Assembly: GCF_000009705.1 (NCBI RefSeq)
Contig: NC_003272.1
Location: 750,001-782,000 of the forward strand
Direction of reading: 5' to 3'
From: Nostoc sp. PCC 7120 = FACHB-418
GTDB lineage: Bacteria; Cyanobacteriota; Cyanobacteriia; Cyanobacteriales; Nostocaceae
DNA length: 32,000 bases
Below are positions 15,650-31,547 of this stretch, in pieces. A program made the translations under genes and the position numbers. Each line of letters begins with the position of its first letter. Within the stretch, counting starts at the first letter, position 1. Under the pieces are notes generated by a model that was given only the letters and a program-made list of their open reading frames with translations, was not told the DNA's origin and did not search any database.

Positions 15650-15889
15650 AGTTAAAAATTACTAGAAAAATTAAGCATTTGTGCTTTTATGATTCCCCGT
15701 TAGTCCGAACAACCACCAAAAGACCCAAGCATAAAGTCCTATTTTGATAAGAGACCATTTATAAAGTAAATATTTAGAGGGCTAGACGACCTGACTTTTC
15801 CCGTTAAGTCTGTTTTGCAAGCTGCCAACCCTCACAAAAGTGTGCAATTTTAACCAACCTTGCCACAGTACCTGGATACCAATTGGTGT

Positions 15890-16165
15890 TCGGCTTCGAT
15901 GTTTTAGGTAGCCGCCAAGACGAGCTATCGCTTCGACAGCCTTTATCTATATCTGATGAAATATCACCCAAGAAGTAACTCGCCGAAAGTATTGCTATAC
16001 GAAGATTACAGCCTTAGTGTACAATTTTCTCGTTTCGGCACGGTGATGCCAGTGAAAGCGATAGCCGACAAGCATTTTCAAAGAAGAAACGTAAGCGAAC
16101 GCTCTTTCTCACAGTTCGCACGATTACTGAGATACAAAGACTGTAAAAAAATGGTCAATTTCTAG
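15890..16165 (+). pseudogene. Possible degenerate IS200/IS605-family TnpB fragment
   Basis: The track ORF 15956..16165 reads ...KVLLYEDYSLS...QRRNVSERSFSQFARLLRYKD. It loosely mirrors the TnpB RuvC-II region (IAIEDLNVKGM...LAKSISDASWGEFVRQLEYKA). The upstream frames are broken by stops. This is a weak similarity recalled from memory. Confidence 0.25.
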
Positions 16166-16323
16166 CTATAATTTTTAACTTATTATAATAAATAAAATCT
16201 TTAATTTAGGGATTTTGTGCATTTTTAAATTTTTATTTTAGGGATAAAACTTGGTATTTCCAAATTTTGAAATTTTTCATAAATTAATAAATTACATTCT
16301 TACAAGAACATTATCATTAAGAA

Positions 16324-16358
16324 ATGGCATAGAGCCGAGATAACTGGCTCTATGCCAT
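16324..16358 (-). terminator. Perfect 13-bp stem hairpin
   Basis: ATGGCATAGAGCC (16324-16336), a 9-nt loop, then GGCTCTATGCCAT (16346-16358). On the minus strand the stem is followed by TTTCTT. Confidence 0.45.
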
Positions 16359-16472
16359 AGTCATATTCAGTGCAAATGAGTTAAATTGAACAAATTAACT
16401 GAACTACCTAGTTAAACTGATTTACTAGTTTCATCTCAACAATAAACAATTTTTAACTCTACATATTTATTG

Positions 16473-16652
16473 TTAGAGTCCAATTTCACCTACTACCGTT
16501 TCTTTATCAGGATTTCCTTGAATATACTTCAACACAATCTTTACACCCAATCCATTTTGGCGAAAGGCAATCTGATAATGGTCTGGGTTGAGGTCTTTAT
16601 TGTTGTCTTTGATAAAACTAAAAAAGTTTACCAAACTGAAGTTTGTATTCAT
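16473..16652 (-). CDS. Hypothetical 59-aa protein
   Basis: The minus-strand frame from ATG at 16652 to TAA at 16473-16475 reads MNTNFSLVNFFSFIKDNNKDLNPDHYQIAFRQNGLGVKIVLKYIQGNPDKETVVGEIGL. It looks more protein-like than the overlapping plus-strand track ORF 16470..16682. I recognise no homolog. Confidence 0.35.
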   Translation of the reverse strand: MNTNFSLVNFFSFIKDNNKDLNPDHYQIAFRQNGLGVKIVLKYIQGNPDKETVVGEIGL

Positions 16653-16824
16653 CTGTTTTCTCTCATGACATGGATAAAGTAAGTAGAAGATTATAGATAA
16701 TCTAGCTATAAATTTATAGATATAAAAAATATAACTAGGAACTAAACTCTCAACTTAACTAAATTGAGTAATGAGTTGATTTCGTTTATCTTTCTTCTGA
16801 TTATTTATAAGTGTCGCCGAAATT

Positions 16825-17045
16825 AGCTTATGCAGTTGGAATAATTGATCTGTCCTGAAAATAAATAATGTAAAAATATATACATACTTTTACGACGGTA
16901 AATAAGAGCCAATGATTTTGTTCTCCGCCCATTATGAATGCACTTAATTTATTACCGCAGAGTAAAAAGATACACACGACTATAGGCGCTCACGATTAAA
17001 ACTTGTGAGTTTACTAAGTGTATCTTTTTAGCAACTGCATAAGCT
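16825..17045. repeat. 221-bp module bounded by 14-nt perfect inverted termini, with nested inverted repeats
   Basis: AGCTTATGCAGTTG (16825-16838) faces CAACTGCATAAGCT (17032-17045). Nested inside are TAAAAAGATACAC (16963-16975) / GTGTATCTTTTTA (17019-17031) and CTCAC...GTGAG. The same 12-nt termini bound a second module at 27362-27570. Confidence 0.7.
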
Positions 17046-17104
17046 CACAATACAGGTCTCTATTTAGTTACAGAAATAATATCTTACATATCTAAGGAGA
17101 GAGA

Positions 17105-19003: not shown

Positions 19004-19006
19004 GAA

Positions 19007-19051
19007 TAACATATTTGAGACTCTCAATTCGTGAAAGTCTCAAATATGTTA
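19007..19051. terminator. Bidirectional terminator hairpin between convergent genes
   Basis: Perfect 16-bp stem TAACATATTTGAGACT (19007-19022) / AGTCTCAAATATGTTA (19036-19051) lies between the amylase stop (19003) and the WD40 ORF stop (19057). Confidence 0.7.
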
Positions 19052-19056
19052 CTTCA

Positions 19057-21861
19057 TCATTGTTGGGCGATGGGGCGTATCCCGTCGCATAAACTTTTTT
19101 CATCAGGGTTCACATTGGGATTATTTTGCAAATAATCTCGCGCCCAATCACAACCACGCACTAGTAATTGATCTAAATCATCTAGATATAAATGCCAAAC
19201 CACGATATCATACCTGCTACCAGTGGCTAGAGTCTTACCATCAAGACTAAACCGCAAACTCCAAACTGCATCTTTATAGCCTCGCAGGGTACGCAGTTCT
19301 TGACCGTTAATGTTCCAGATTTTTACAGTATTATCACCACTGGCAGTGGCAATGAGTTTACCATCTGGGCTGAAGGTAACATTATGAACTACATTTTTAT
19401 GTCCTCGCAGAGTTCGCAATTCTTTGCCATCAAGATTCCAGATTTTTACAGTATTATCCCAACTAGCACTAGCAATCAGCTTACCATCTGGGCTGAAGGT
19501 GACGCTGTTAATACCACTTGTATGTCCCGTTAAAGTCTTCTGTAATCGACCATCAATACTCCAGATTTTCACTGTTTTGTCCCAACCAGCCGTAGCAATT
19601 AATTTACCATCTGGGCTGAACACTGCGCTATTAACTACACTACTCTGACGTGGGAGAGTTTTAAGCAATTCACCGTCTCGATTCCAGAGTTTGACAGTTT
19701 TGTCTTCACTAGCCGTAGCAATTAACTGACCATCCGGGCTGAAATTGACACTCCAAACTGTATCTTTGTGTCCTGTAAGAGTTTTCTGTAATGTACCATC
19801 TAGATTCCAGAGTTTGGCGGTTTTATCCCAACTCGTCGTAGCAATGTACTTACCATCTGGGCTAAAACTCAGCTTATTTACCCTGCCTTGATGCCCGTTG
19901 AAGGTTCGCAGTTCTTGAAGTTTATCCCCTACAATACTCCAGAGTTTGGCGGTTTTATCCCAACTAGCCGTAGCAATGTACTTACCATTTGGGCTAAATA
20001 CTAGGTCGAAGACCTCATCTTCATGACCCCGAACAATAATGCTGTTAGGACTGTTGAGTTTCCAGATTTTAGCCGTTTTGTCATTACCAGCTGTAGCGAT
20101 GGATGTGCCATCAGGACTAAACGCGACGCTATTAACTGCATCAGTGTGTCCGTAGAGGGTTTCTAGTTCTTGACCTTTGCTGTTCCAAAGTTTGACAGTT
20201 CTGTCACCACTAGCTGTAGCAATCAGTTTGCCGTCGGGACTGAATGTCACACTGTTCACCCCATTTTGATGACCTCTGAGGGTTTGCAGTTCTTTTCCGT
20301 CTAAACTCCAAAGTTTGACAGTTCTGTCACCACTGGCTGTAGCAATTTGTTTACCATCTGGGCTAAAGCTGACGCTCCAAATCATATCTTGATGTCCTCT
20401 AAAAGTTCGCAATTCCTTGCCATCAAGATTCCAGAGTTTCATGGTGTTGTCCCAACCGACAGTGGCAATTAGCTGACCGTCTGGGCTAAAGGTGATGCTG
20501 TTGACCTTATCTTTATGTCCTTCCAGGGTGTGCAGGAGTTTACCTTCTCGACTCCAGAGTTTAACTGTGTTGTCCCAACTAGCCGTAGCAAGTAGCTGAC
20601 TATCAGGACTAAAGGCGACTTCCAAAACTGCTTCTTTATGTCCGTCAAGAGTGTGGAGGCGTTTACCTTCTCGACTCCAAATTTTTGCCGTGTTGTCCCA
20701 ACTGCCGGTAGCCATCAGTGTACCATCGGGGCTGAAGGCAACGCTATTAAAACCCTCTCCTTTCTCTTCTCGCAGTACGACTAACTGTTTTTTACCGTCA
20801 AGACTCCAAATTTTGACTGTTTTATCTCTGCTGGCGGTGGCAATAAATTTACTATCAGGGCTAAAACTCACACTCTCTAGCATTCCATCATGTTCTGCTA
20901 AACGATTTTTCTCTCTGACGAAGTTGATGGACTGTTGTAGAGTCTCGGTAATTTGAGTGCGAGTGTTAGCATCAATTCCATCAGTGCCTTTGATGCGCCT
21001 ACCAGCTCTAATACTGGCAATTAACCCATCAAACTCTAGATTTGCATTAAGGAAGCTTTCGGCTGATGAGCTGATTGCTTTAGTTTCGCTCATCCGTGCC
21101 TTTTGTCCTTGCAACCAAGCAACCCCAGCCAGACCAAGGGCTAAGATTAAGCCTGTGACTAGGGATGAAATCCCGATTTTACGTATGCGCTGCTGCTGTT
21201 TGACCTCAAGTTCTCTCAGTTCCCCACTCTTATTAATGAACCTGATTTCATTTGTATTGAGTTCTTGTGCGCGTTGTAACTGCCATTCTTGGGCATCTAT
21301 CAAGGCCTTACCTCGTAATAGCACCCCTTGATCATGTCCGCTATTTTCCCATAGGCGAATTGCTAACCGTAATTGTTCGCGCCAGCGTAGAAAATCACCA
21401 TCCACAATTAGCCACTGTTCCAGTCGTCCCCAGCTTCTAATTAAGGCTTCATGGACGATTTCTACTGTTTCTTCTGCCGTGGACTCATTACGGTTGGTCA
21501 CTACTAGACGTGAAGAAGCTAAACGTGTGACTAAATCCCAGTTTTCTAGCCTGACTTCCTCACGAGTTGTCAACCGTCGGGTAGCTTCTGTGTCATCTCC
21601 TAAACGTACCAATTGGATAAATATTTGTTGCGCCCTTTGCCTATCTGCTTCGGTTAGCTGGGCATATACAGCCTCAGCATGGTTAGCCAAGGCTTCTTCT
21701 ACACCACCAATTTCTTGATAAGCTTGATGAGTTAAGAGCCTATTTTGCTGTTTTGACCATAATTGGGTAAGGGCAAACTCAAGTAAAGGTAAATGTCCTG
21801 GCTGTTGGTCTATCTCGTCGATTAATTGATTGGTTAATCCTGCTTCTAGTCCTATCTGCAT
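19057..21861 (-). CDS. C-terminal part of a frameshifted CHAT-STAND NTPase-WD40 protein: NTPase helical/winged-helix region, one TM helix, 14 WD40 repeats
   Basis: 934-aa ORF. It begins mid-domain (QIGLEAGLTNQLIDEIDQQPGHLPLLEFALTQLW). The TM helix is IGISSLVTGLILALGLAGVAWL. There are 14 repeats of the type GH.d.V.SV.FSPDGk.IATAS.DkTvKLW. The conserved tail is LLVRGCDWARDYLQNNPNV. Confidence 0.9.
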   Translation of the reverse strand: MQIGLEAGLTNQLIDEIDQQPGHLPLLEFALTQLWSKQQNRLLTHQAYQEIGGVEEALANHAEAVYAQLTEADRQRAQQIFIQLVRLGDDTEATRRLTTREEVRLENWDLVTRLASSRLVVTNRNESTAEETVEIVHEALIRSWGRLEQWLIVDGDFLRWREQLRLAIRLWENSGHDQGVLLRGKALIDAQEWQLQRAQELNTNEIRFINKSGELRELEVKQQQRIRKIGISSLVTGLILALGLAGVAWLQGQKARMSETKAISSSAESFLNANLEFDGLIASIRAGRRIKGTDGIDANTRTQITETLQQSINFVREKNRLAEHDGMLESVSFSPDSKFIATASRDKTVKIWSLDGKKQLVVLREEKGEGFNSVAFSPDGTLMATGSWDNTAKIWSREGKRLHTLDGHKEAVLEVAFSPDSQLLATASWDNTVKLWSREGKLLHTLEGHKDKVNSITFSPDGQLIATVGWDNTMKLWNLDGKELRTFRGHQDMIWSVSFSPDGKQIATASGDRTVKLWSLDGKELQTLRGHQNGVNSVTFSPDGKLIATASGDRTVKLWNSKGQELETLYGHTDAVNSVAFSPDGTSIATAGNDKTAKIWKLNSPNSIIVRGHEDEVFDLVFSPNGKYIATASWDKTAKLWSIVGDKLQELRTFNGHQGRVNKLSFSPDGKYIATTSWDKTAKLWNLDGTLQKTLTGHKDTVWSVNFSPDGQLIATASEDKTVKLWNRDGELLKTLPRQSSVVNSAVFSPDGKLIATAGWDKTVKIWSIDGRLQKTLTGHTSGINSVTFSPDGKLIASASWDNTVKIWNLDGKELRTLRGHKNVVHNVTFSPDGKLIATASGDNTVKIWNINGQELRTLRGYKDAVWSLRFSLDGKTLATGSRYDIVVWHLYLDDLDQLLVRGCDWARDYLQNNPNVNPDEKSLCDGIRPIAQQ
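19192..20892 (-). repeat. Tandem coding repeat array of 14 WD40 units, about 123 nt each
   Basis: I counted 14 FSPDG/FSPDS/FSPNG/FSLDG cores in the translation. The 41-aa periodicity is visible at nucleotide level (recurring ccatctgggctgaa / tttgacagtt strings). Confidence 0.85.
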
Positions 21862-23689
21862 TTTTTTTAGCAGGTTCTTCTATCACCCGACGCAATTCCT
21901 TCATATTCATGGGGCCAAGGTTCTGCACTGCTCCTTGCAAGGCATCACTAAAGGGACGGTAAGAAAGAGCATAGCTGTAAAAGTCAGCCCGCAGGGTTAA
22001 AACGATGGTGAAGGCGGGAGTGAAACTATAAGCATTGAGTAATAAATCTAAAAAAGGCTGACGTTGTGGTTCTGGACAAAGGGTGTAAAGTTCCTCAAAC
22101 TGATCTGCTATGAGTAGTAAACGAGTGCCAAATTTTTGCTGCACAACCTTTTCTAGGATGGTGTGTAGTAATTGATGGTTTTGTTGTAATGCGATCGCTA
22201 AATCTAATTCTAGTAAGCGAGTAGTGGTACTATCTTCTGGCAACTCTAGGATGTTTTCTAGGGAAAAAGAGGGACAACACTGTCGTAAACTCACTAATGC
22301 AGTCGCCAAAGCTTCAAAGGGATTTTTCCCTGGACGAAAAGAAATGATTTGCCATTGCACATTCGGGTCTTGTCGTAACTGGGGAGTCAACCCAGCAAAC
22401 ACTAAACTAGACTTACCACTGCCACTAGCCCCCACTACAGCCACAAACCGCTTTCTTTTCACCGCCTTGACTAAATCAGCCGTGAATTCTTCTCTGCCAA
22501 AAAATAAGTGTGCATCTTCTTCTCGGAAAGCAAATAAACCACGATATGGACAAGGGGGTATGCCGCCCAATTGCAACCAAGTTGGTGGTTCTACAGATGG
22601 GTTTTGAAAAATTACGGGCAACCAAGAAGCACAGGGAAAGTCATCTTCTAATCCTTGTAACTGTCTGCGTGCCTGTTGTACTGCTAAATATAAAGTTTGA
22701 CGCTTGATAGCGAAAGCTTCCAGAAAATTTTGGAAAAACTGCTGGGCGACACAATTTGGCACTGGTTCTCGCATGATAATCACTTGGGGAATATGCAGTT
22801 TTCCCAAAGCATTCGCCAATCCCAGTCCATCACAGGAGTTGAAAATAGCTAACTTTAAACCTCTATCAATGGCTGCGGTGAGAGCTTCCTCTAATTCTCC
22901 AATTGTCAGGCTATTGTTTGTGGGATTGTCATTGATATAAATTATGCCTGTGTCACCTTTGCTTTGACTATGACCTGCAAAAAATAAGATGTCCCAACCT
23001 AAAGAGTCCCAAAGCTGTTTGTTAAATTCTTGACGCGAGGGCTGATTTAGCTGCACAACTTCGGCAATATTCTCTAATTCTTTCAGAAAAGTGGCTTCTC
23101 TTTGCAAGTCAATACCTTGGCTATTGCCCAAAATAGCTAAAATTCTGACTTTGTTTCTGTTGCATAGGGATTGTGTCGCATCTCTTCGTTGATACTCTGT
23201 CCGGGAAAGTCCTAGTTCTGCTTGAGGATAATCTCGAAAAAAGTCCCAGCAATGCCAGGGTAGCCGCCGTAAACTGTCATCGTTGGTTTCTAGAATGACT
23301 CGAATTTCTTCATTGCGGTTAAGTTGCGATCGCAATTGTCTTTCAATTTCTAGAAACTCTACTGACTTAAGCCAAGTATTAATATTATCTCGTAGCTGTT
23401 TACATAATTCATCAAAATCGAGTAGAGACACGTTTGTTATCGCGCCTAATTCTATTTCCAGTTGGTCATCTTCCTCTAACAATGCAGAACGCATTGGTTG
23501 ACGAGTACATAAAGCTTGATAATTGGTACGCCAATGTCTATAGAGTTCTAGTAAATTTGGTGCAGCTGGTAAGCTACCAAGAAACTGCTCTGGCGCATGA
23601 TGACTTGCTGACCAAAGTTGAGTCGTCACGCTGGGAAATCCAGTATACAAATCACCATTACCCAAATTTATGACAATTGTCTTGCTCAT
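21779..23689 (-). CDS. N-terminal part of the same protein: CHAT (caspase-like) protease domain plus STAND P-loop NTPase core
   Basis: 636-aa ORF. It has a CHAT-like His/Cys dyad (ILFFAGHSQS at about aa 240; AIFNSCDGLG at about aa 286). PYRGLFAFREEDAHLFFGRE is followed by Walker A VVGASGSGKSS and Walker B LLLIADQFEE. The last 27 aa are out-of-frame junk after the A8 tract at 21861-21868. Confidence 0.9.
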   Translation of the reverse strand: MSKTIVINLGNGDLYTGFPSVTTQLWSASHHAPEQFLGSLPAAPNLLELYRHWRTNYQALCTRQPMRSALLEEDDQLEIELGAITNVSLLDFDELCKQLRDNINTWLKSVEFLEIERQLRSQLNRNEEIRVILETNDDSLRRLPWHCWDFFRDYPQAELGLSRTEYQRRDATQSLCNRNKVRILAILGNSQGIDLQREATFLKELENIAEVVQLNQPSRQEFNKQLWDSLGWDILFFAGHSQSKGDTGIIYINDNPTNNSLTIGELEEALTAAIDRGLKLAIFNSCDGLGLANALGKLHIPQVIIMREPVPNCVAQQFFQNFLEAFAIKRQTLYLAVQQARRQLQGLEDDFPCASWLPVIFQNPSVEPPTWLQLGGIPPCPYRGLFAFREEDAHLFFGREEFTADLVKAVKRKRFVAVVGASGSGKSSLVFAGLTPQLRQDPNVQWQIISFRPGKNPFEALATALVSLRQCCPSFSLENILELPEDSTTTRLLELDLAIALQQNHQLLHTILEKVVQQKFGTRLLLIADQFEELYTLCPEPQRQPFLDLLLNAYSFTPAFTIVLTLRADFYSYALSYRPFSDALQGAVQNLGPMNMKELRRVIEEPAKKNADRTRSRINQSINRRDRPTARTFTFT

Positions 23690-23929
23690 GATGATTATAT
23701 AGATTGAGTAAAGCCATTTTTATATACAACCTGAATTTATAGCTTTTTGTATATTTTTGCTAGATATCTTTGCAAAAATGATACTTTTCTCCTATGAATA
23801 TTTATAGGTTTTTTATCTTTAAAGAAATAATATTTTACTTGTTACAAAATATTGTAATTTATTCGTCAGTGCTAAAGTCTTGATTCTATTCAGGTAACTT
23901 CTTGTTGGCGCAGCCTCTGGCAAAAGAAC

Positions 23930-24103
23930 CTACTGGCGTGTCAAAGCTAAAGTAGTGCAAAAATATAGGGGTAGGTTGAGTTGAAGCTTTGCGTAGGCGA
24001 AGCCTTCCCGCAGGGTAACCCAACACCACGATCAAAGTTGGGTTTCCTAATGTCAACCCAACCTACAATTTTTTGCAACATTTTAGCCTTGCCACGCTAC
24101 TAG
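23930..24103. mobile_element. Palindromic MITE-like element of about 175 bp
   Basis: Outer arms are CGTGTCAAAGCTAAAGTAGTGCAAAAA (23937-23963) versus TTTTTGCAACATTTTAGCCTTGCCACG (about 24069-24096). Inner arms are GTAGGTTGAGTTGA (23971-23984) versus TCAACCCAACCTAC (24053-24066). The core is AACCCAAC...GTTGGGTT. It resembles the GGGTTGGGTT-type cyanobacterial MITEs. Confidence 0.6.
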
Positions 24104-24302
24104 AAAAAATGATTGACAGTGATGTAATCATTTATGTGTACACCGTAGACAAAAACAAAAGAAAATTAACATTCTCAATACAAAGAAAATAATTATTTTT
24201 TTGCTGCTTGTGACAGTGCTAATACTTTATAATTCCAAGCGTTAATGAATATTAAATTATTAATTTAATTATTTGAATTCTGCAAGATAATATTAATTTT
24301 TC

Positions 24303-25370
24303 CTATAATTCAAAATTTTCTTTAATAGTAATATTGTCTAAGCTGACCTCAATACTAAACTGTTTTCCTATTTCTCCCTGAAAAGGATTCAGTTGAATAT
24401 AACTATCTTGACTTCTAGATATAACTTCACACAGCGATTTTCCTGCCTTTGATAGTAAAGTTAGCTTGAGATTAGGCTGTAAAAACTTTGTTTCTCCGCT
24501 TGGATGCAACTGGATTAATACACGTAATTTTTCTTCAGCCTCTTCTTTAATATTGACCAACATGACAACAGGATAGTTGCCAAGTTGCATTTCTAAGTTA
24601 ATAATTTTACCCCGCTTGATGCTCTCAGCATTATTTCTGATATTTAAAGCTAAATTAATATCTGGATTAATCAATGCAGCAATTGACTGCCATTCATCGA
24701 GAAAAATCCCCCGTAACCATTGGCTCAATTTAGTTTTATTTTGAGGCAACAATTGTATTAAATTATCTTCGTTGTTGACTGTCGTTAACACAGGTAAAGG
24801 AATGGTATGAGCATCTAAAAAACGGCAGTAAAATAAAATGTGATTTGGTTCTGGATCAAATTCTGCTAGTGGTAGTTGATAACAACCATTCCTTGGTTGT
24901 AAATTCATCTTATCTCTATAACTAACTAGTTGGTCGTAACGTAAAATACCTCGAAGAACTAATTCTGCTTGCTCTTCTAATACTTCAACTACAACATATA
25001 AATGAGCTATCGCTTCTGGCTTAATAATAGTATCTTCAGGTATATTTACTAATTCATCTAGTAGATGTTCCGTAACGATTAAACAAAATTTAAATTCACC
25101 TAATTGGATATGAGTAAAATTATCAATAATTTGATTGTTTTGTTTAATAAGTTGTTCTGGTAGGTTTTCTTTGAGCCATTTAGCAAATCCTAATGATGCC
25201 AGTACATTTAAATATGTTTGCCACTGTTTGAATTCACCAACTACCTGCTGACTAAGTTTTCTTGCTGAGTCAAAACATTCTGGTTCTAACCAAATTGATT
25301 CTGATAACAATAATCTCAATTTATTGTTTTTTTCATGGTTCTTAATCATTATTTTTATCCTTGATTTCAA
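24303..25370 (-). CDS. DUF1822-family protein (cyanobacterial, function unknown)
   Basis: 355-aa ORF. The N-terminal pattern ...ARKLSQQVVGEFKQWQTYLNVLASLGFAKWLKENL... matches my memory of DUF1822. The gene is AT-rich. An alternative ATG start at 25349 has AAGGA upstream. Confidence 0.7.
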   Translation of the reverse strand: MKSRIKIMIKNHEKNNKLRLLLSESIWLEPECFDSARKLSQQVVGEFKQWQTYLNVLASLGFAKWLKENLPEQLIKQNNQIIDNFTHIQLGEFKFCLIVTEHLLDELVNIPEDTIIKPEAIAHLYVVVEVLEEQAELVLRGILRYDQLVSYRDKMNLQPRNGCYQLPLAEFDPEPNHILFYCRFLDAHTIPLPVLTTVNNEDNLIQLLPQNKTKLSQWLRGIFLDEWQSIAALINPDINLALNIRNNAESIKRGKIINLEMQLGNYPVVMLVNIKEEAEEKLRVLIQLHPSGETKFLQPNLKLTLLSKAGKSLCEVISRSQDSYIQLNPFQGEIGKQFSIEVSLDNITIKENFEL

Positions 25371-25546
25371 TTAAATTCAAATATCCATGTAAAATCCAGC
25401 AGTCTTTACGCATGAAATACAAAATTATCAGAGTAAATACATGAGGTCGTGATTGAGCCTTATCGAAGTACAGAATTTGTCAGAAAATGTATTTGTTAAG
25501 TCCTCAATTTTGTGCATCATTTAATCATAAACTGCTGTGATTTTGG

Positions 25547-26992
25547 CTAAATAGCAATTAGTTGGTTTTCCAAGTAATTCTGAAGTTTTTGAGCATATAC
25601 ACTATTAAACGAACGGTTTCTGCCGGCTCTAATTTCTTCTCCTGCTTCTATAAAAACTTCTACATCAACAAAATTTTCTATTTGTTCAGCCAAGGTTTTC
25701 AGATATTCGGGTTCAGGAGGAATTGAGGTTAAACCTTTGGTATGAGCTTTTTGTAACATAGTATCGAGTAGTTTCTGTACCGTTAATATACGTACTTTAC
25801 TCAAAAGTTCACCAGGGTTTAATATTCGTCGTGTTTGATCCCAACTTGTCATATCCAAAAGAAGTTGAACTTCCTTTAAAGACTTACAATCACAGTAATA
25901 TAGTTGTAACCCAGGAAGATATTTTTGCGCTAGCGGAGCGTAACTTTTACTGTTTTGTAACTTGGCAATTGTCTGACTAATTTCTTGGGCGATCGCCTCA
26001 GACAAAATCAATTGTAATTGTTGATGTAGAAATTCAATAATTTCTTGTTGTTCTAAATGTGATTCATCGTAAGAAACCGTGGGTAAGTCTTTTCTGGGTT
26101 TATATATGCCAGTATCATGATCTGGAACTTCTAGAGGTTCTCGATAACTCCAAATATCATATTGTCGCAGTTGACTTGCTACTTGTTTGAGTTCTCGTTT
26201 CAACTCATCTGTAGTTTTGATGATGATGTTATGTTCTTGCAAGCAAGCCAGCATTTCCTGCAACTGTGAAATCGTGGGGTCTGGACATTTTCCCACTTCC
26301 ATCTGTTTTCTTTCACGTCTATCTCGTCGGTAGACTGCATGAAATACCGTTATTAGTTGGCGCGATCGCTTGACTAAAAGTTCTAGTTGTTTGGCTCTAA
26401 CTCGGTTTAATAATGACCAATCACTATGATGTTGAAAACCAAATTCTGCTAAAAACTTTCTTAGTTCTGGATTTTGCTTAGTTTGCAAGTAAGTCCAATT
26501 ATCTAGACTCATACTTGATTGAGACCCATGCTTAAATTTGCGTAAGACTTCCACCGTAAACAATTTATAAGTTGTTGTGTGAGGAACGCCATGCTCATCT
26601 AAGACTAATTGATTTTTGCGATCGCTATCCAAAATCACTAACCTGTTGCCATCATCATCTAGCACACAACTTAATAAATCTTGATAGCTGAAAGATTTTT
26701 CACCACTGAAGAGACTATCAATTTTTTGACAGGCTTTCAGAATCGGGTAGGAAACATAGCACCGTAGACACAAACCAGCAAGGCCACGATTGAGCAAATC
26801 CTTTTCAGCCAGATGATTGGCATAAAAATTACCTAGCAGGGTAGATTGGATGTCATCATTTTGGAAATCATGAACTTGTTGCTGAAAAAAATCCCGTGCT
26901 TGAGACAGATCAGACTGTTTGTATCCTACTTGTTGATTAGCAAGATTAATACGCCAAATTGTCCAGTACCTTGATATTGATGCAGCATTCAT
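25547..26992 (-). CDS. Sigma-70-like / HetZ-like putative DNA-binding regulator
   Basis: 481-aa ORF. The C-terminal LPGLQLYYCDCKSLKEVQLLLDMTSWDQTRRILNPGELLSKVRIL looks like a sigma region-4 helix-turn-helix. The N-terminal GLAGLCLRCYVSYPILKACQKI...FSYQDLLSCVLDD resembles the atypical sigma-like proteins I recall next to DUF1822 genes. The CDS is solid; the function is inferred. Confidence 0.6.
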   Translation of the reverse strand: MNAASISRYWTIWRINLANQQVGYKQSDLSQARDFFQQQVHDFQNDDIQSTLLGNFYANHLAEKDLLNRGLAGLCLRCYVSYPILKACQKIDSLFSGEKSFSYQDLLSCVLDDDGNRLVILDSDRKNQLVLDEHGVPHTTTYKLFTVEVLRKFKHGSQSSMSLDNWTYLQTKQNPELRKFLAEFGFQHHSDWSLLNRVRAKQLELLVKRSRQLITVFHAVYRRDRRERKQMEVGKCPDPTISQLQEMLACLQEHNIIIKTTDELKRELKQVASQLRQYDIWSYREPLEVPDHDTGIYKPRKDLPTVSYDESHLEQQEIIEFLHQQLQLILSEAIAQEISQTIAKLQNSKSYAPLAQKYLPGLQLYYCDCKSLKEVQLLLDMTSWDQTRRILNPGELLSKVRILTVQKLLDTMLQKAHTKGLTSIPPEPEYLKTLAEQIENFVDVEVFIEAGEEIRAGRNRSFNSVYAQKLQNYLENQLIAI

Positions 26993-27361
26993 ATTTATTT
27001 ACTGCTTTGCCTCACATTAGCTGAGATGTTAAGTCACATACTTGCATTAAATAACTAAATGTCAGCATTTTGAACATATGCAGCTAAATCGCAGTTATTT
27101 GGCTAGTTATTTTTGTTACGGAGGGTTTATTCGGCGGATTTATTGCTGCTGGGTTGAGCTAGATCGGGTGCGCCAGCTATATCTATTCCTGCTAATCCCA
27201 TTCCCGCCGACCATTTCACGGGGTCAGCATCTTTAGGTAAAAAGAGAACCGCGATCCCAATCGCTCCACCAATAGCGGCTAAAAGCTTGGATCAAATTAG
27301 CTTGCATAGTTTTTGACAATATGAATTTTTGGCTCAGTCATAAATACAAACAAGATGTTTC

Positions 27362-27570
27362 AGCTTATGCAGTGTCATATAACGTTTCTCATTTTAGTCA
27401 GGTACATCTGGTTGATGTCAGAGGTTAGAGATTAGTAATGAGTCAAGGTAACTTTGCAGCTTTAATAGCATTCATCACTCTAGCTGCCACTTTCTTTTCG
27501 CTTGCAGAGTATATAGCACACAACTGAGAATCGCTATAAAACAACCTCTCAGAAAAATACTGCATAAGCT
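27362..27570. repeat. 209-bp module bounded by the same inverted termini as 16825-17045
   Basis: CAGCTTATGCAGT (27361-27373) faces ACTGCATAAGCTG (27559-27571). The 12-nt core AGCTTATGCAGT is identical to the termini of module A. The module encloses a 29-codon hydrophobic ORF (27438-27527). Confidence 0.65.
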
Positions 27571-27619
27571 GATTTTGATAACACCTATGAAATCAGTGAA
27601 AAGTTAATCAACTGATACC

Positions 27620-28216
27620 ATGCAATCCATTAACATTACAAGACTTTCTGTCCTCAAGCCAGAGTATGACAACCTGTGGAATAGCTGTCAGATTAGACCT
27701 GAGTGGCTAGAACGTACTAAAAAAGTTGTCTTGAACATTCAAGCGAAACGCGATCGCTATGAAAGCGTAGGCACACAAACTAACATTCCTTGGTATTTTA
27801 TCGGCTGTATCCATAACATGGAAGCATCTTTAAACTTTAACAGTCATCTTCATAATGGTGATTCGCTTAAAGCTAGGACTCATCGTGTTCCAAAAGATAG
27901 GCCATTAAATCCCCCTAAAAATGGTTGGGATATTGGCTATTCCTGGGAAGAAAGTGCAGCAGATGCACTGATTATGAAAGATTTCCATAAAGCTCAAGAT
28001 TGGAGTATTCCTGCTCAGTTATGGCGGCTCGAACTTTACAATGGTTTTGGTTATAGGCTGCATCATCCAGATGTGCTAACGCCTTATCTTTGGAGTGGTA
28101 CGCATCACTACACCAAAGGTAAATATGTTGCCGATAATAAGTGGAGTTCTGATGCTATTTCTGAGCAAGTGGGAGCAGCCGCTATCTTAAAACTATTGTT
28201 ACCTGAAATTAAATAA
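27620..28216 (+). CDS. Putative lysozyme-like / peptidoglycan-active protein, no signal peptide
   Basis: 198-aa ORF. IPWYFIGCIHNMEASLNFNSHLHNGDSLKARTHRVPKDRP...GYSWEESAADAL...LELYNGFGYR resembles what I recall of the COG5526 'lysozyme family protein' group, with a candidate catalytic Glu in NMEAS. This is recalled from memory and not verified. Confidence 0.45.
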   Translation: MQSINITRLSVLKPEYDNLWNSCQIRPEWLERTKKVVLNIQAKRDRYESVGTQTNIPWYFIGCIHNMEASLNFNSHLHNGDSLKARTHRVPKDRPLNPPKNGWDIGYSWEESAADALIMKDFHKAQDWSIPAQLWRLELYNGFGYRLHHPDVLTPYLWSGTHHYTKGKYVADNKWSSDAISEQVGAAAILKLLLPEIK

Positions 28217-30446: not shown

Positions 30447-31547
30447 ATGCCATTAAAACTAATTTCCAAGAAAAGTACAGCAGCGTTGGCAATTAGCACC
30501 ACAGTAGCCTTGTTTGGAATCAGTTTGTCTAGATTAAAGTTGCCATTTGAGACGTTTACACATAACGTTACATCTGTCCCCATAATTCAACCCGATCGCA
30601 CCATCAAAGACCATTCAGCGTGGATTTATGCGATCGCCATTACTCCCGATGGTAAGACTCTAGTCAATGGCAACTACGATGGCACGATTAAAACTTGGAA
30701 TCTGCATACTGGCAAATTACTCCACACTTTTAAAAGTCATACTGATGCCGTGTCATCCCTAGCTATGAGTGTTGATGGTCGTATCCTGGTTAGTGGTAGT
30801 TGGGATAACCGGATTAAGCTCTGGAATCTGGAAACAAATACTTTAATCAGTACCCTTGATGGACATAAGGACGATGTACAGACAGTTGCTATCAGCCCCA
30901 ACGGCAAGTTAGTCGCCAGTGGTAGTGCCGACAACACGATTAAGCTTTGGAATCTGGATACCCACAAACAACTCTTGACACTCCAGAATGCAGACTGGGC
31001 GAGGTCTATTGCTTTTAGCCCCGATAATCAGACCTTAGTTAGCGGTAGTACCAACGGCTCAATCAAAATTTGGCAGTTAACTACCCCCCGTCCAATACCT
31101 CTCTATACCATCATCGGGCATTCTCAAGCCGTCAGGTCTGTTGTCATTAGTCCAGATGGACAAACCCTAGCTAGTGGTAGTGTCGATCAAACCATTAAAC
31201 TTTGGAGTTGGCGCGATCGCAATCTCTTACGCACACTCACAGGACATTCTGGAGCAGTGTGGTCTGTAGCCTTCAGTCCCAACGGTCAAACCTTAGCCAG
31301 TGGTAGTAACGACAGAACAATCAAACGGTGGGATATAGCTACAGGTCAACTCATAGATAACTTTGTCGGGCATACCAACCCCGTTTGGTCAGTTACCTTC
31401 AGTCCAGATGGGCAGACCCTAGCTAGTGGTAGTGGAGATCAAACCATCAAACTTTGGTCTATTAAGAGTGACACAAGTTCTCAAACTCATACTCAAAGTA
31501 ATACTCTTTCCCAGACCAAATCCAAATATCTGAAGCAAATACGATGA
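30447..31547 (+). CDS. WD40-repeat protein (about 7 blades) with an N-terminal signal-anchor
   Basis: The N-terminal hydrophobic segment is AALAISTTVALFGISL. It is followed by repeats of GH...V.S.A.SPDGQTLASGS.D.TIKLW. Confidence 0.88.
   Translation: MPLKLISKKSTAALAISTTVALFGISLSRLKLPFETFTHNVTSVPIIQPDRTIKDHSAWIYAIAITPDGKTLVNGNYDGTIKTWNLHTGKLLHTFKSHTDAVSSLAMSVDGRILVSGSWDNRIKLWNLETNTLISTLDGHKDDVQTVAISPNGKLVASGSADNTIKLWNLDTHKQLLTLQNADWARSIAFSPDNQTLVSGSTNGSIKIWQLTTPRPIPLYTIIGHSQAVRSVVISPDGQTLASGSVDQTIKLWSWRDRNLLRTLTGHSGAVWSVAFSPNGQTLASGSNDRTIKRWDIATGQLIDNFVGHTNPVWSVTFSPDGQTLASGSGDQTIKLWSIKSDTSSQTHTQSNTLSQTKSKYLKQIR

Follow-up and report, generated by a model that had tools for sequence, protein, structure and literature searches.

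A sigma-like/DUF1822 gene pair and a split CHAT-nSTAND1-WD40 sensor protease in Nostoc sp. PCC 7120: a candidate protease-gated switch

The window analyzed here, a 32-kb stretch (32,000 nt) of the Nostoc/Anabaena sp. PCC 7120 chromosome, contains a cluster of minus-strand genes that encode a sigma-like protein of 481 aa, a DUF1822 protein, and a large sensor protease in which a CHAT domain is joined to an nSTAND1 NTPase, a transmembrane (TM)-like segment, and WD40 repeats. Judged by the conservation of their arrangement across cyanobacteria, these genes are real and functionally linked, and on balance we lean toward reading them as a protease-gated sigma/anti-sigma switch of the “EACC2-caspase + ECF sigma + DUF1822” type (ECF, extracytoplasmic function). 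The finding is real and coherent, but its kind has already been described in silico (Kaur, Iyer, Burroughs and Aravind, 2021, eLife, PMC8195603); the promoter-like motif reported below is new in this analysis. Caspase-like protease-STAND NTPase fusions are abundant in multicellular cyanobacteria, and here one is found in Anabaena PCC 7120, the best model for genetic work.

Gene linkage and domain architecture

The first-pass annotation described three co-oriented minus-strand genes. The co-orientation and the first two open reading frames (ORFs) stand, but the third gene is present here as two ORFs, so that four lie in series. The products of the first three ORFs match the accessions given below exactly. 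The features of the cluster are:

25547-26992, minus: sigma-like gene, 481 aa, BAB72625.1, probably All0667
24303-25370, minus: DUF1822 gene, 355 aa from a TTG start, annotated as 348 aa from M8 at 25349, BAB72624.1, probably All0666
23690-24302, minus: spacer between the DUF1822 and CHAT genes, 613 nt
21779-23689, minus: sensor-protease ORF 1, 636 aa, BAB72623.1, probably All0665
22970-22972, minus: codon of His240
22832-22834, minus: codon of Cys286
22409-22432, minus: Walker A motif, GASGSGKS
22091-22120, minus: Walker B motif, LLLIADQFEE
21861-21868, minus: A8 homopolymer (T8 on the plus strand), the +1 insertion that splits the sensor-protease gene
19057-21861, minus: sensor-protease ORF 2, 934 aa, probably All0664
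21109-21177, minus: TM-like segment IGISSLVTGLILALGLAGVAWLQ, one hydrophobic stretch preceded by a basic stretch, in the 934-aa ORF
about 19162-20904, minus: WD40 repeats, 14 Pfam stretches, in the 934-aa ORF

Relatives of the 481-aa protein (48-95% identity) are encoded at 40 loci in many cyanobacterial orders, and at every one of them the DUF1822 gene directly follows the sigma-like gene in the same orientation (40/40). At most loci -7 to +35 nt separate the two genes, compared with 176 nt in the window; in seven loci the ORFs overlap by 1-7 nt, which suggests translational coupling. A CHAT gene is present in 28 of the 40 loci. Twenty-six of these carry a homolog of the EACC2-CHAT module (the N-terminal 370 aa), and the two others have a TPR-CHAT gene directly downstream. 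Fifteen of the EACC2-CHAT homologs are directly downstream and co-oriented, 13 of them continuing into nSTAND1, and eight are encoded on the other strand at a distance of a few kb. The CHAT-linked loci cover Nostocales, Chroococcidiopsis, Microcoleus, Pleurocapsales-like organisms, Elainellales, and Phormidesmis. Across orders, identity is about 50-60% for the sigma-like and DUF1822 proteins and about 50-67% for the CHAT module, and in four distant loci (L032, L034-L036) only roughly 4-55 nt separate the DUF1822 and CHAT genes.

The triad is also retained on plasmids, in paralogs with ~26% identity; on pNPUN01 of N. punctiforme (L041) the order is hypothetical protein, DUF1822, TPR-CHAT, CHASE2. 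The first-pass annotation had made its proposal depend on synteny of these genes outside very close relatives, and synteny of that reach is what the pair (40/40), the CHAT gene (28/40, across orders), and the plasmid triads display. Linkage that spans orders and plasmids favors a functional module. As side observations, the pNPUN01 cluster is interrupted by an IS4 transposase, and the deep sigma-like/DUF1822 paralogs of L041 and L042 (the latter a plasmid of Tolypothrix PCC 7712) are on conjugative or mobilizable plasmids, where their neighbors are TPR-CHAT or TPR proteins and CHASE2 proteins.

The domain content ascribed to the large protein by the first-pass annotation (CHAT, STAND, TM helix, and 14 WD40 repeats) was recovered in full. 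The CHAT model (PF12770) scores 52.9 bits, above its cut-off, in the 636-aa ORF, which runs from an EACC2-like region (aa 1-118) through CHAT (aa 119-349) to the N-terminal half of nSTAND1 with its P-loop. Over aa 1-370, 24 proteins share 49-94% identity and 74 invariant positions, including G10, G12, W53, Y57, H240, and C286; the last two form the catalytic dyad, His240 in DILFFAGHS and Cys286 in FNSCD. The nSTAND1 model (PF20703) scores 209 bits over profile positions 1-205 in the 636-aa ORF and 176 bits over positions 206-378 in the 934-aa ORF. Both Walker motifs, the TM-like segment, and the 14 WD40 stretches complete the architecture, and the proposed logic of protease, STAND switch, and repeat sensor is confirmed at that level. 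What follows the constant N-terminal module differs among homologs: nSTAND1 with TM segment and WD40 repeats, CHASE2, AAA_35, or nothing. A constant module with variable C-termini matches a common output served by interchangeable sensors.

The single protein of about 1540 aa that had been proposed is, in the window, two overlapping ORFs in different frames, and the nSTAND1 profile is cut between positions 205 and 206; the claim holds for sister strains, where an intact allele encodes 1543 aa. The cause is one extra A, with GCT-A8-TG in the window versus GCC-A7-TG in Nostoc parmelioides (L001), and deleting it restores 1543 aa, the length of the intact orthologs. We considered a sequencing error and rejected it, since both alleles recur on many independent contigs: the 636-aa split product on 24 contigs, independent assemblies among them, and the intact 1543-aa product (BAY71641.1; FACHB-709 and others, near-identical strains) on 39. 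The frameshift is thus a real polymorphism. As a +1 shift within the sensor-protease gene, it has probably disabled or deregulated the switch in the PCC 7120 reference lineage, with the switch intact in sister strains, although slippage during transcription or translation could occasionally occur on a run as long as A8, so that some full-length protein might still arise in PCC 7120. The two alleles amount to a natural experiment, with a null-like allele in the reference lineage and an intact one in near-identical sister strains.

Sigma-like protein, promoter-like motif, and DUF1822 protein

The family of the 481-aa protein comprises 454 representative clusters, and its best organism-named matches are all cyanobacterial. 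In an alignment of 67 of its sequences (A2; the DUF1822 alignment is A3), the sigma70-ECF model TIGR02937 matches 24 members, every one below the cut-off. In some members the aligned segment covers profile positions 38-155 (one member) or 65-155 and is spread over 180-250 residues, which implies large insertions. Further subthreshold matches among the 67 were to SigB/F/G (12), Sigma70_r4 (10), and r4_2 (7). Searched against the PDB, the family profile found only short helix-turn-helix (HTH) domains that are sigma-r4-like, including DeoR/SorC-type and SigF. The sigma-4 HTH is predicted at about aa 352-391, with additional N-terminal, internal, and C-terminal domains. The first-pass annotation had placed a sigma region-4-like HTH in the 481-aa protein; the ORF is as it described, and the HTH is seen at the family and profile level but not in the protein itself, where the Sigma70_r4 model found no match.

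Structure prediction points the same way. The AlphaFold2 model of the 481-aa protein has a pLDDT (predicted local distance difference test) of 90.6, and its top eight Foldseek matches in the PDB are sigma-A, sigma-B, and sigma-S chains in RNA polymerase holoenzymes, aligned over about 400 columns with E-values of 0.017-0.23, probabilities of 0.44-0.89, and TM-scores of only about 0.2. Low TM-scores are expected, because a compact multi-domain model is being compared with extended holoenzyme-bound chains. When aligned by hhalign with an approximate E. coli RpoE sequence, region 4.2 was in register, though not significantly so. No HetZ-named NCBIfam model matched either the 481-aa protein (E ≤ 10) or the family members (25 families listed, E ≤ 0.1), in a library that may lack a HetZ model. 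At the level of family and fold, these comparisons suggest, but do not prove, that the 481-aa protein belongs, as a divergent member with extra domains, to the sigma-70/ECF-like factors, which agrees with the label “ECF sigma factor” used by Kaur et al.

Upstream of the sigma-like gene, a bipartite motif is found in at least 35 of the 40 loci (site score at least 17). Its consensus is AACTGCATAAGCTCAAAACGCTGGCATCTATTTATT, with a core, CTGCAT-N16-CATCTA, in -35/-10 geometry, and it usually ends 50-60 nt before the ATG. We built a weight matrix from 22 sites, excluding the site of the window’s own sigma-like gene, and compared the window with 40 composition-preserving shuffles. Five sites scored at least 19 bits, versus 0.0 expected (shuffle maximum, 15.5). 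All five are intergenic and each is aimed at a downstream ORF:

27050-27085, minus: site A, score 37.4, ends 57 nt before the ATG of the sigma-like gene
27339-27374, minus: site B, score 24.1, before a small TM protein gene that is degraded in the window (27127-27319)
27558-27593, plus: site C, score 19.5, ends 26 nt before the ATG of the lysozyme-family gene; conserved in L001
17033-17068, plus: site D, score 29.4, ends 36 nt before the ATG of the GH13 gene
16802-16837, minus: site E, score 23.8, faces an AT-rich region with only a 59-aa ORF (16473-16652)

Site D is also kept before the orthologous GH13 gene in L001, L002, L003, and L039. The small TM ORF that follows site B is intact in relatives, with 70 aa in L001 (9606-9818), and is broken in the window by a 14-nt deletion relative to L001. 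ECF sigma factors typically activate their own genes from a dedicated promoter, and we infer from sequence that the sigma-like protein may read the CTGCAT-N16-CATCTA motif. A simple sigma-70 promoter scan of the window gave fewer matches than in shuffles and was uninformative.

At several loci the promoter-like motif is followed by a gene for a small membrane protein (~60-80 aa), and these proteins have the sequence IRALTPI(V/F) in common. In L032 (7517-7705 and 8012-8263), the promoter-like motif precedes such a TM ORF directly upstream of an EACC2-CHAT-CHASE2 gene.

The DUF1822 gene reported at 24303-25370 was verified by a match to PF08852 of 286 bits over its full length. Its product is probably All0666, which a 2010 list includes among the clade-wide signature proteins of cyanobacteria. 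The AlphaFold2 model (pLDDT 69) consists of an alpha/beta N-terminal domain (15-185), a linker, and an all-beta, sandwich-like C-terminal domain. The linker (188-257, ~70 residues) is modeled with low confidence yet conserved in sequence, with K207, S209-L212, W220, R238, and K248 standing out. This arrangement, with a conserved flexible linker between two domains, is also that of Csx30, and we counted it toward a cleavable anti-sigma factor; we propose, by analogy, that DUF1822 may be an anti-sigma factor or adaptor and the substrate of the protease. The model is not a TPR solenoid, in contrast to the wording “TPR protein” of Kaur et al. (2021), in whose tables (PMC8195603) many NCBI “DUF1822 family” proteins are labeled TRADD-N+TPRs. 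In one locus (L025, 7638-8018), the C-terminal third of DUF1822 is partially duplicated, the copy lying between the complete DUF1822 gene and an EACC2-CHAT-AAA_35 gene.

A proposed switch, related systems, and rival explanations

In the switch that we propose, DUF1822 would be made in a fixed ratio from the adjacent, often overlapping gene and would bind the sigma factor and keep it inactive, the 481-aa protein acting as a divergent ECF-like sigma factor with extra domains. The large protein, with its N-terminal constant domain, CHAT, nSTAND1, TM segment, and 14 WD40 repeats, would be the sensor-actuator. A ligand at the WD40 propellers, which are probably extracytoplasmic if the TM segment is real, would lead to NTP-dependent oligomerization of nSTAND1, oligomerization would activate CHAT by proximity, and CHAT would cleave DUF1822 within its conserved flexible linker. 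The freed sigma factor could then use CTGCAT-N16-CATCTA promoters, namely its own and those of the nearby lysozyme-family and GH13 genes. This reading draws support from the sigma factors that make up the top eight Foldseek matches together with the subthreshold TIGR02937 and Sigma70_r4 matches, and from both the HetF-PatU3-HetZ precedent in the same organism and the proposal of Kaur et al. (2021). We regard a protease-gated switch as the most economical reading; a role in death or immunity is possible. With a predicted promoter motif, candidate targets, and a specific role for each component, it is directly testable in a model organism. If true, it would extend the HetF-PatU3-sigma-HetZ logic to a large conserved family and tie “bacterial apoptosis-like” machinery to transcriptional reprogramming, not to killing alone.

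Several observations weigh against this switch. For the 481-aa protein itself, neither Pfam nor NCBIfam yields a match up to an E-value of 10, and every piece of sigma evidence is either subthreshold or of low TM-score. A Foldseek search with the DUF1822 model, whose confidence is only moderate, found no anti-sigma, Csx30, TRADD-N, or TPR fold; the matches were only to generic Ig-like sandwiches. On the EACC2-CHAT module the NCBIfam HetF model reaches only 17-28 bits, although the two are co-linear (206-342 vs. 207-354). Six of the 12 loci that lack a CHAT gene do so despite about 9 kb of downstream sequence (the other six have less than 4.1 kb). The DUF1822-CHAT spacer of the window contains no motif site, so the protease gene may be regulated separately. 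In the literature, we found no expression or biochemical data on these genes.

The association of the genes, which the first-pass annotation took to be functionally uncharacterized, is itself not new. Kaur et al. (2021, PMC8195603) described in silico EACC2+caspase proteins with variable C-termini, most of whose neighborhoods also encode an ECF sigma factor and DUF1822, and proposed a caspase-triggered step that ends in transcription via the ECF sigma factor. Their supplement lists the architecture “EACC2+CASPASE+nSTAND1+BetaPropeller”; the PCC 7120 locus is not in their tables under the accessions and tags tried, and HetZ, PatU, and HetF go unmentioned. The present cluster shares the three features of membership in such systems: a constant N-terminal domain with caspase/CHAT, a C-terminus drawn from a range that includes STAND NTPases and CHASE2, and sigma-like and DUF1822 neighbor genes. 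Their account has no promoter motif, regulon, or allele polymorphism, all of which are reported here. We found no experimental paper on EACC2, nSTAND1, or DUF1822.

The closest experimental parallel is in the same organism. In Anabaena PCC 7120 the CHAT protease HetF cleaves PatU3 after R117 (PMC9457339); sigma-HetZ, which belongs to the ECF sigma factors and carries three inserted domains, probably has PatU3 as its anti-sigma factor (PMC13342950). Like the sensor protease described here, HetF has an N-terminal catalytic CHAT domain followed by a TM segment and a repeat domain (extracytoplasmic in HetF); its circuit also has a small inhibitor, cut at a single Arg, a sigma factor with inserted domains, and adjacent genes for the two. 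It differs in that hetF is unlinked to hetZ-patU and has TPR instead of WD40 repeats and no STAND NTPase, and in that the HetZ promoter consensus is TCCGGA-N16-17-TGNA (PMC13342950), versus CTGCAT-N16-CATCTA here. In type III-E CRISPR systems, the TPR-CHAT protease Csx29 cuts Csx30 in an inter-domain loop, and the N-terminal domain of Csx30 binds RpoE (PMC9825189). Such a Craspase (Csx29-Csx30-RpoE/CASP-sigma) likewise combines a sensor-activated CHAT protease with a two-domain sigma-binding protein whose cleavage modulates an ECF sigma factor, an arrangement that is proposed here from genes and models. Its sensor is the RNA-guided Cas7-11 and not a STAND NTPase, and there is no CRISPR context here; a fold search detected no similarity between DUF1822 and Csx30, and the TPR-CHAT protein of the plasmid paralog gave a weak match (31 bits) to the Csx29 model.

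Regulated proteolysis also frees sigma-E in the RseA pathway. More generally, in CalpL-CalpT-CalpS, SAVED-CHAT-PCaspase-PCc-sigma, and DegS/RseP-RseA-sigma-E, proteolysis releases or modifies a sigma factor; all three use other protease families or sensors (Lon-like, SAVED, PDZ), and none has a STAND-WD40 sensor. Avs/NLR-like STAND proteins, for their part, also combine an effector, a STAND NTPase, and a repeat sensor and are presumably activated by oligomerization. Avs proteins do not share four features of the present system: its nSTAND1 clade, its TM segment, its dedicated sigma/DUF1822 partners, and its conserved synteny on the chromosome. No defense-system protein model in PADLOC v2, which includes Avs, matched; the residual matches were mad3 and mad8 at 18-20 bits (P-loop level) and HEAT-ARM_XIII over the WD40 part. 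The comparison with an Avs-type immune machine drawn in the first-pass annotation is thus one of analogy, not membership.

An effector of abortive infection or programmed cell death would put the same parts to a different use: an Avs/NLR-like sensor would unleash a protease that cuts many host targets and so kills the cell or stops its growth, with the sigma-like and DUF1822 proteins tuning or assisting it. The confirmed protease-STAND-repeat architecture suits such an effector, SAVED-CHAT/PCaspase has an abortive phenotype and is also sigma-linked (bioRxiv 10.1101/2023.06.23.546230), lysozyme-like and endolysin-like neighbors in the candidate regulon would fit a lytic outcome, and costly defense genes commonly lose function in laboratory strains. 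We nevertheless judge it unlikely. No PADLOC defense model matches, the locus is in conserved chromosomal synteny and not in a defense island, and the identities across orders given above for the pair and for CHAT are unlike those of fast-evolving immune sensors. Moreover, the sigma-DUF1822 pair (40/40) is conserved more strictly than any one sensor, which points to transcription as the common output. Another reading is a sister of HetZ-PatU-HetF that runs a cell-fate or envelope program (division, necridia, hormogonia, akinetes) on an external cue and does not respond to invaders. Several points favor it: both the logic and the component types match a proven circuit of the same organism, the HetF model is co-linear with the EACC2-CHAT module, filamentous and pleurocapsalean cyanobacteria widely carry the family, the candidate targets are cell-wall and glucan hydrolases, and PMC12669612 mentions an uncharacterized “hetZ relative.” The predicted layout of the 481-aa protein also resembles the published i1-sigma2-i2-sigma3.2-sigma4-i3 layout of HetZ: an extra domain stands at the N-terminus, a beta-hairpin precedes the sigma-4 recognition helix by about 90 aa, and the C-terminus is extended by ~90 aa. 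Yet the similarity to HetF is weak (17-28 bits), the motif is unlike the HetZ promoter, and PCC 7120, the standard model strain, develops normally despite the broken allele, so that we think a developmental paralog quite improbable.

Whatever its role elsewhere, the locus might no longer be functional in PCC 7120, an explanation that we take seriously even though we are inclined to doubt it. Three lesions in the window would be in keeping with decay: the +1 frameshift within nSTAND1, with its split product on 24 contigs including independent assemblies, the small TM ORF, between sites B and A, that is interrupted by a 14-nt deletion, and an insertion resembling a miniature inverted-repeat transposable element (MITE) in the DUF1822-CHAT spacer. 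Against decay, the sigma-like and DUF1822 ORFs are undamaged and do not differ from their counterparts in the intact-allele strains, both halves of the split gene are still long ORFs, slippage on A8 could restore some full-length product, and the intact allele on 39 contigs shows that the break is very recent. That three unrelated genes are neighbors by chance is very improbable: the 613-nt spacer with its inserted element and the want of a shared motif before the CHAT gene would allow it, but the genes stay linked in different orders and in deep plasmid paralogs, and their association was reported independently by Kaur et al. (2021). Beyond the protease-gated switch that we favor lies a broader and, taken whole, unlikely idea, in which the all0667-all0664 module and HetZ-PatU-HetF would be members of one ancient cyanobacterial family of caspase-gated switches from which the heterocyst switch was recruited. 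The output of the present module would then be a hydrolase regulon (lysozyme-family, endolysin-like, GH13, and small membrane protein) transcribed from CTGCAT-N16-CATCTA promoters, through which an extracytoplasmic WD40 signal would bring about controlled wall remodeling or lysis of single filament cells.

Spacer, base composition, and neighboring genes

The remaining features of the cluster and its surroundings are:

23971-24066, minus: MITE-like element, 96 nt, with 14-nt terminal inverted repeats
19006-19052, minus: terminator-like hairpin with a perfect 20-bp stem, directly 3' of the WD40 stop codon
17105-19003, plus: GH13 alpha-amylase-family gene, Pfam Alpha-amylase 164 bits, convergent to the WD40 ORF
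27620-28216, plus: “lysozyme family protein” gene (name from JGI/UniRef), divergent from the sigma-like gene

The outer parts of the DUF1822-CHAT spacer (23690-23900 and 24095-24302) are ~90% identical to those of N. parmelioides, and the central ~190 nt are unrelated. These flanks might serve to regulate the protease gene separately; a repeated word, TTAGCACTG(T/A)C, was also observed in them. The 96-nt element has terminal inverted repeats GTAGGTTGGGTTGA and folds at -41.9 kcal/mol (z = -4.4). Of the hallmarks of a MITE, which the first-pass annotation placed in this gap, the element has the small size, the terminal repeats, and a presence/absence polymorphism, being absent from the orthologous spacer of L001; only one further copy of the repeats was found in 42 loci, elsewhere in L001. 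The same annotation described the region as rich in mobile-element debris; nothing beyond this single MITE-like element was found.

The two upstream genes are AT-rich, as had been noted, with GC contents of 0.371 for the sigma-like gene (third-position GC, GC3, 0.28) and 0.317 for the DUF1822 gene (GC3 0.24), versus 0.42-0.44 for the protease ORFs. Horizontal acquisition, which had been read from this, was considered and rejected. Both genes are GC-poor relative to their own flanks in most relatives too, the alpha-amylase-family gene is syntenic in four other Nostocaceae and the upstream genes in N. parmelioides, and All0666 is a clade-wide signature protein. With the bias shared by relatives and the flanks syntenic, recent transfer is unsupported, and low GC is better seen as a property of the gene family.

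From the sigma-like gene to the WD40 end, the locus tags of the four ORFs are probably all0667, all0666, all0665, and all0664. Only all0666 is independently backed (“hypothetical, 348 aa”), the remaining tags resting on strand naming. The tags all0923-0926, derived from an accession offset, were considered and are wrong; all0926 is a PilL-type hybrid kinase.

The hairpin at 19006-19052 lies where the WD40 and GH13 genes converge and probably terminates transcription in both directions. On the other side of the cluster, the peptidoglycan-hydrolase-like neighbors reported in the first-pass annotation are there: the gene after the “lysozyme family protein” gene encodes PG_binding_1 and an endolysin-like domain. 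The lysozyme-family ORF had 0 matches in PDB, Pfam, and PHROGs and is also unlike the neighboring endolysin-like protein. An Rfam scan of the whole window returned 0 families.

Two further observations concern the window at large. A stand-alone 366-aa protein of seven WD40 repeats is encoded at 30447-31547 (plus strand); compared with the WD40 region of CHAT-STAND orthologs from other loci, its repeats show 45-48% identity. Positions 15650-17100, which lie between the adenylate-cyclase and GH13 genes, form an AT-rich stretch (GC ~0.30) without long ORFs, which contains site E and the 59-aa ORF (16473-16652), whose N-terminus is conserved in L001; this stretch could be a small protein or RNA gene.

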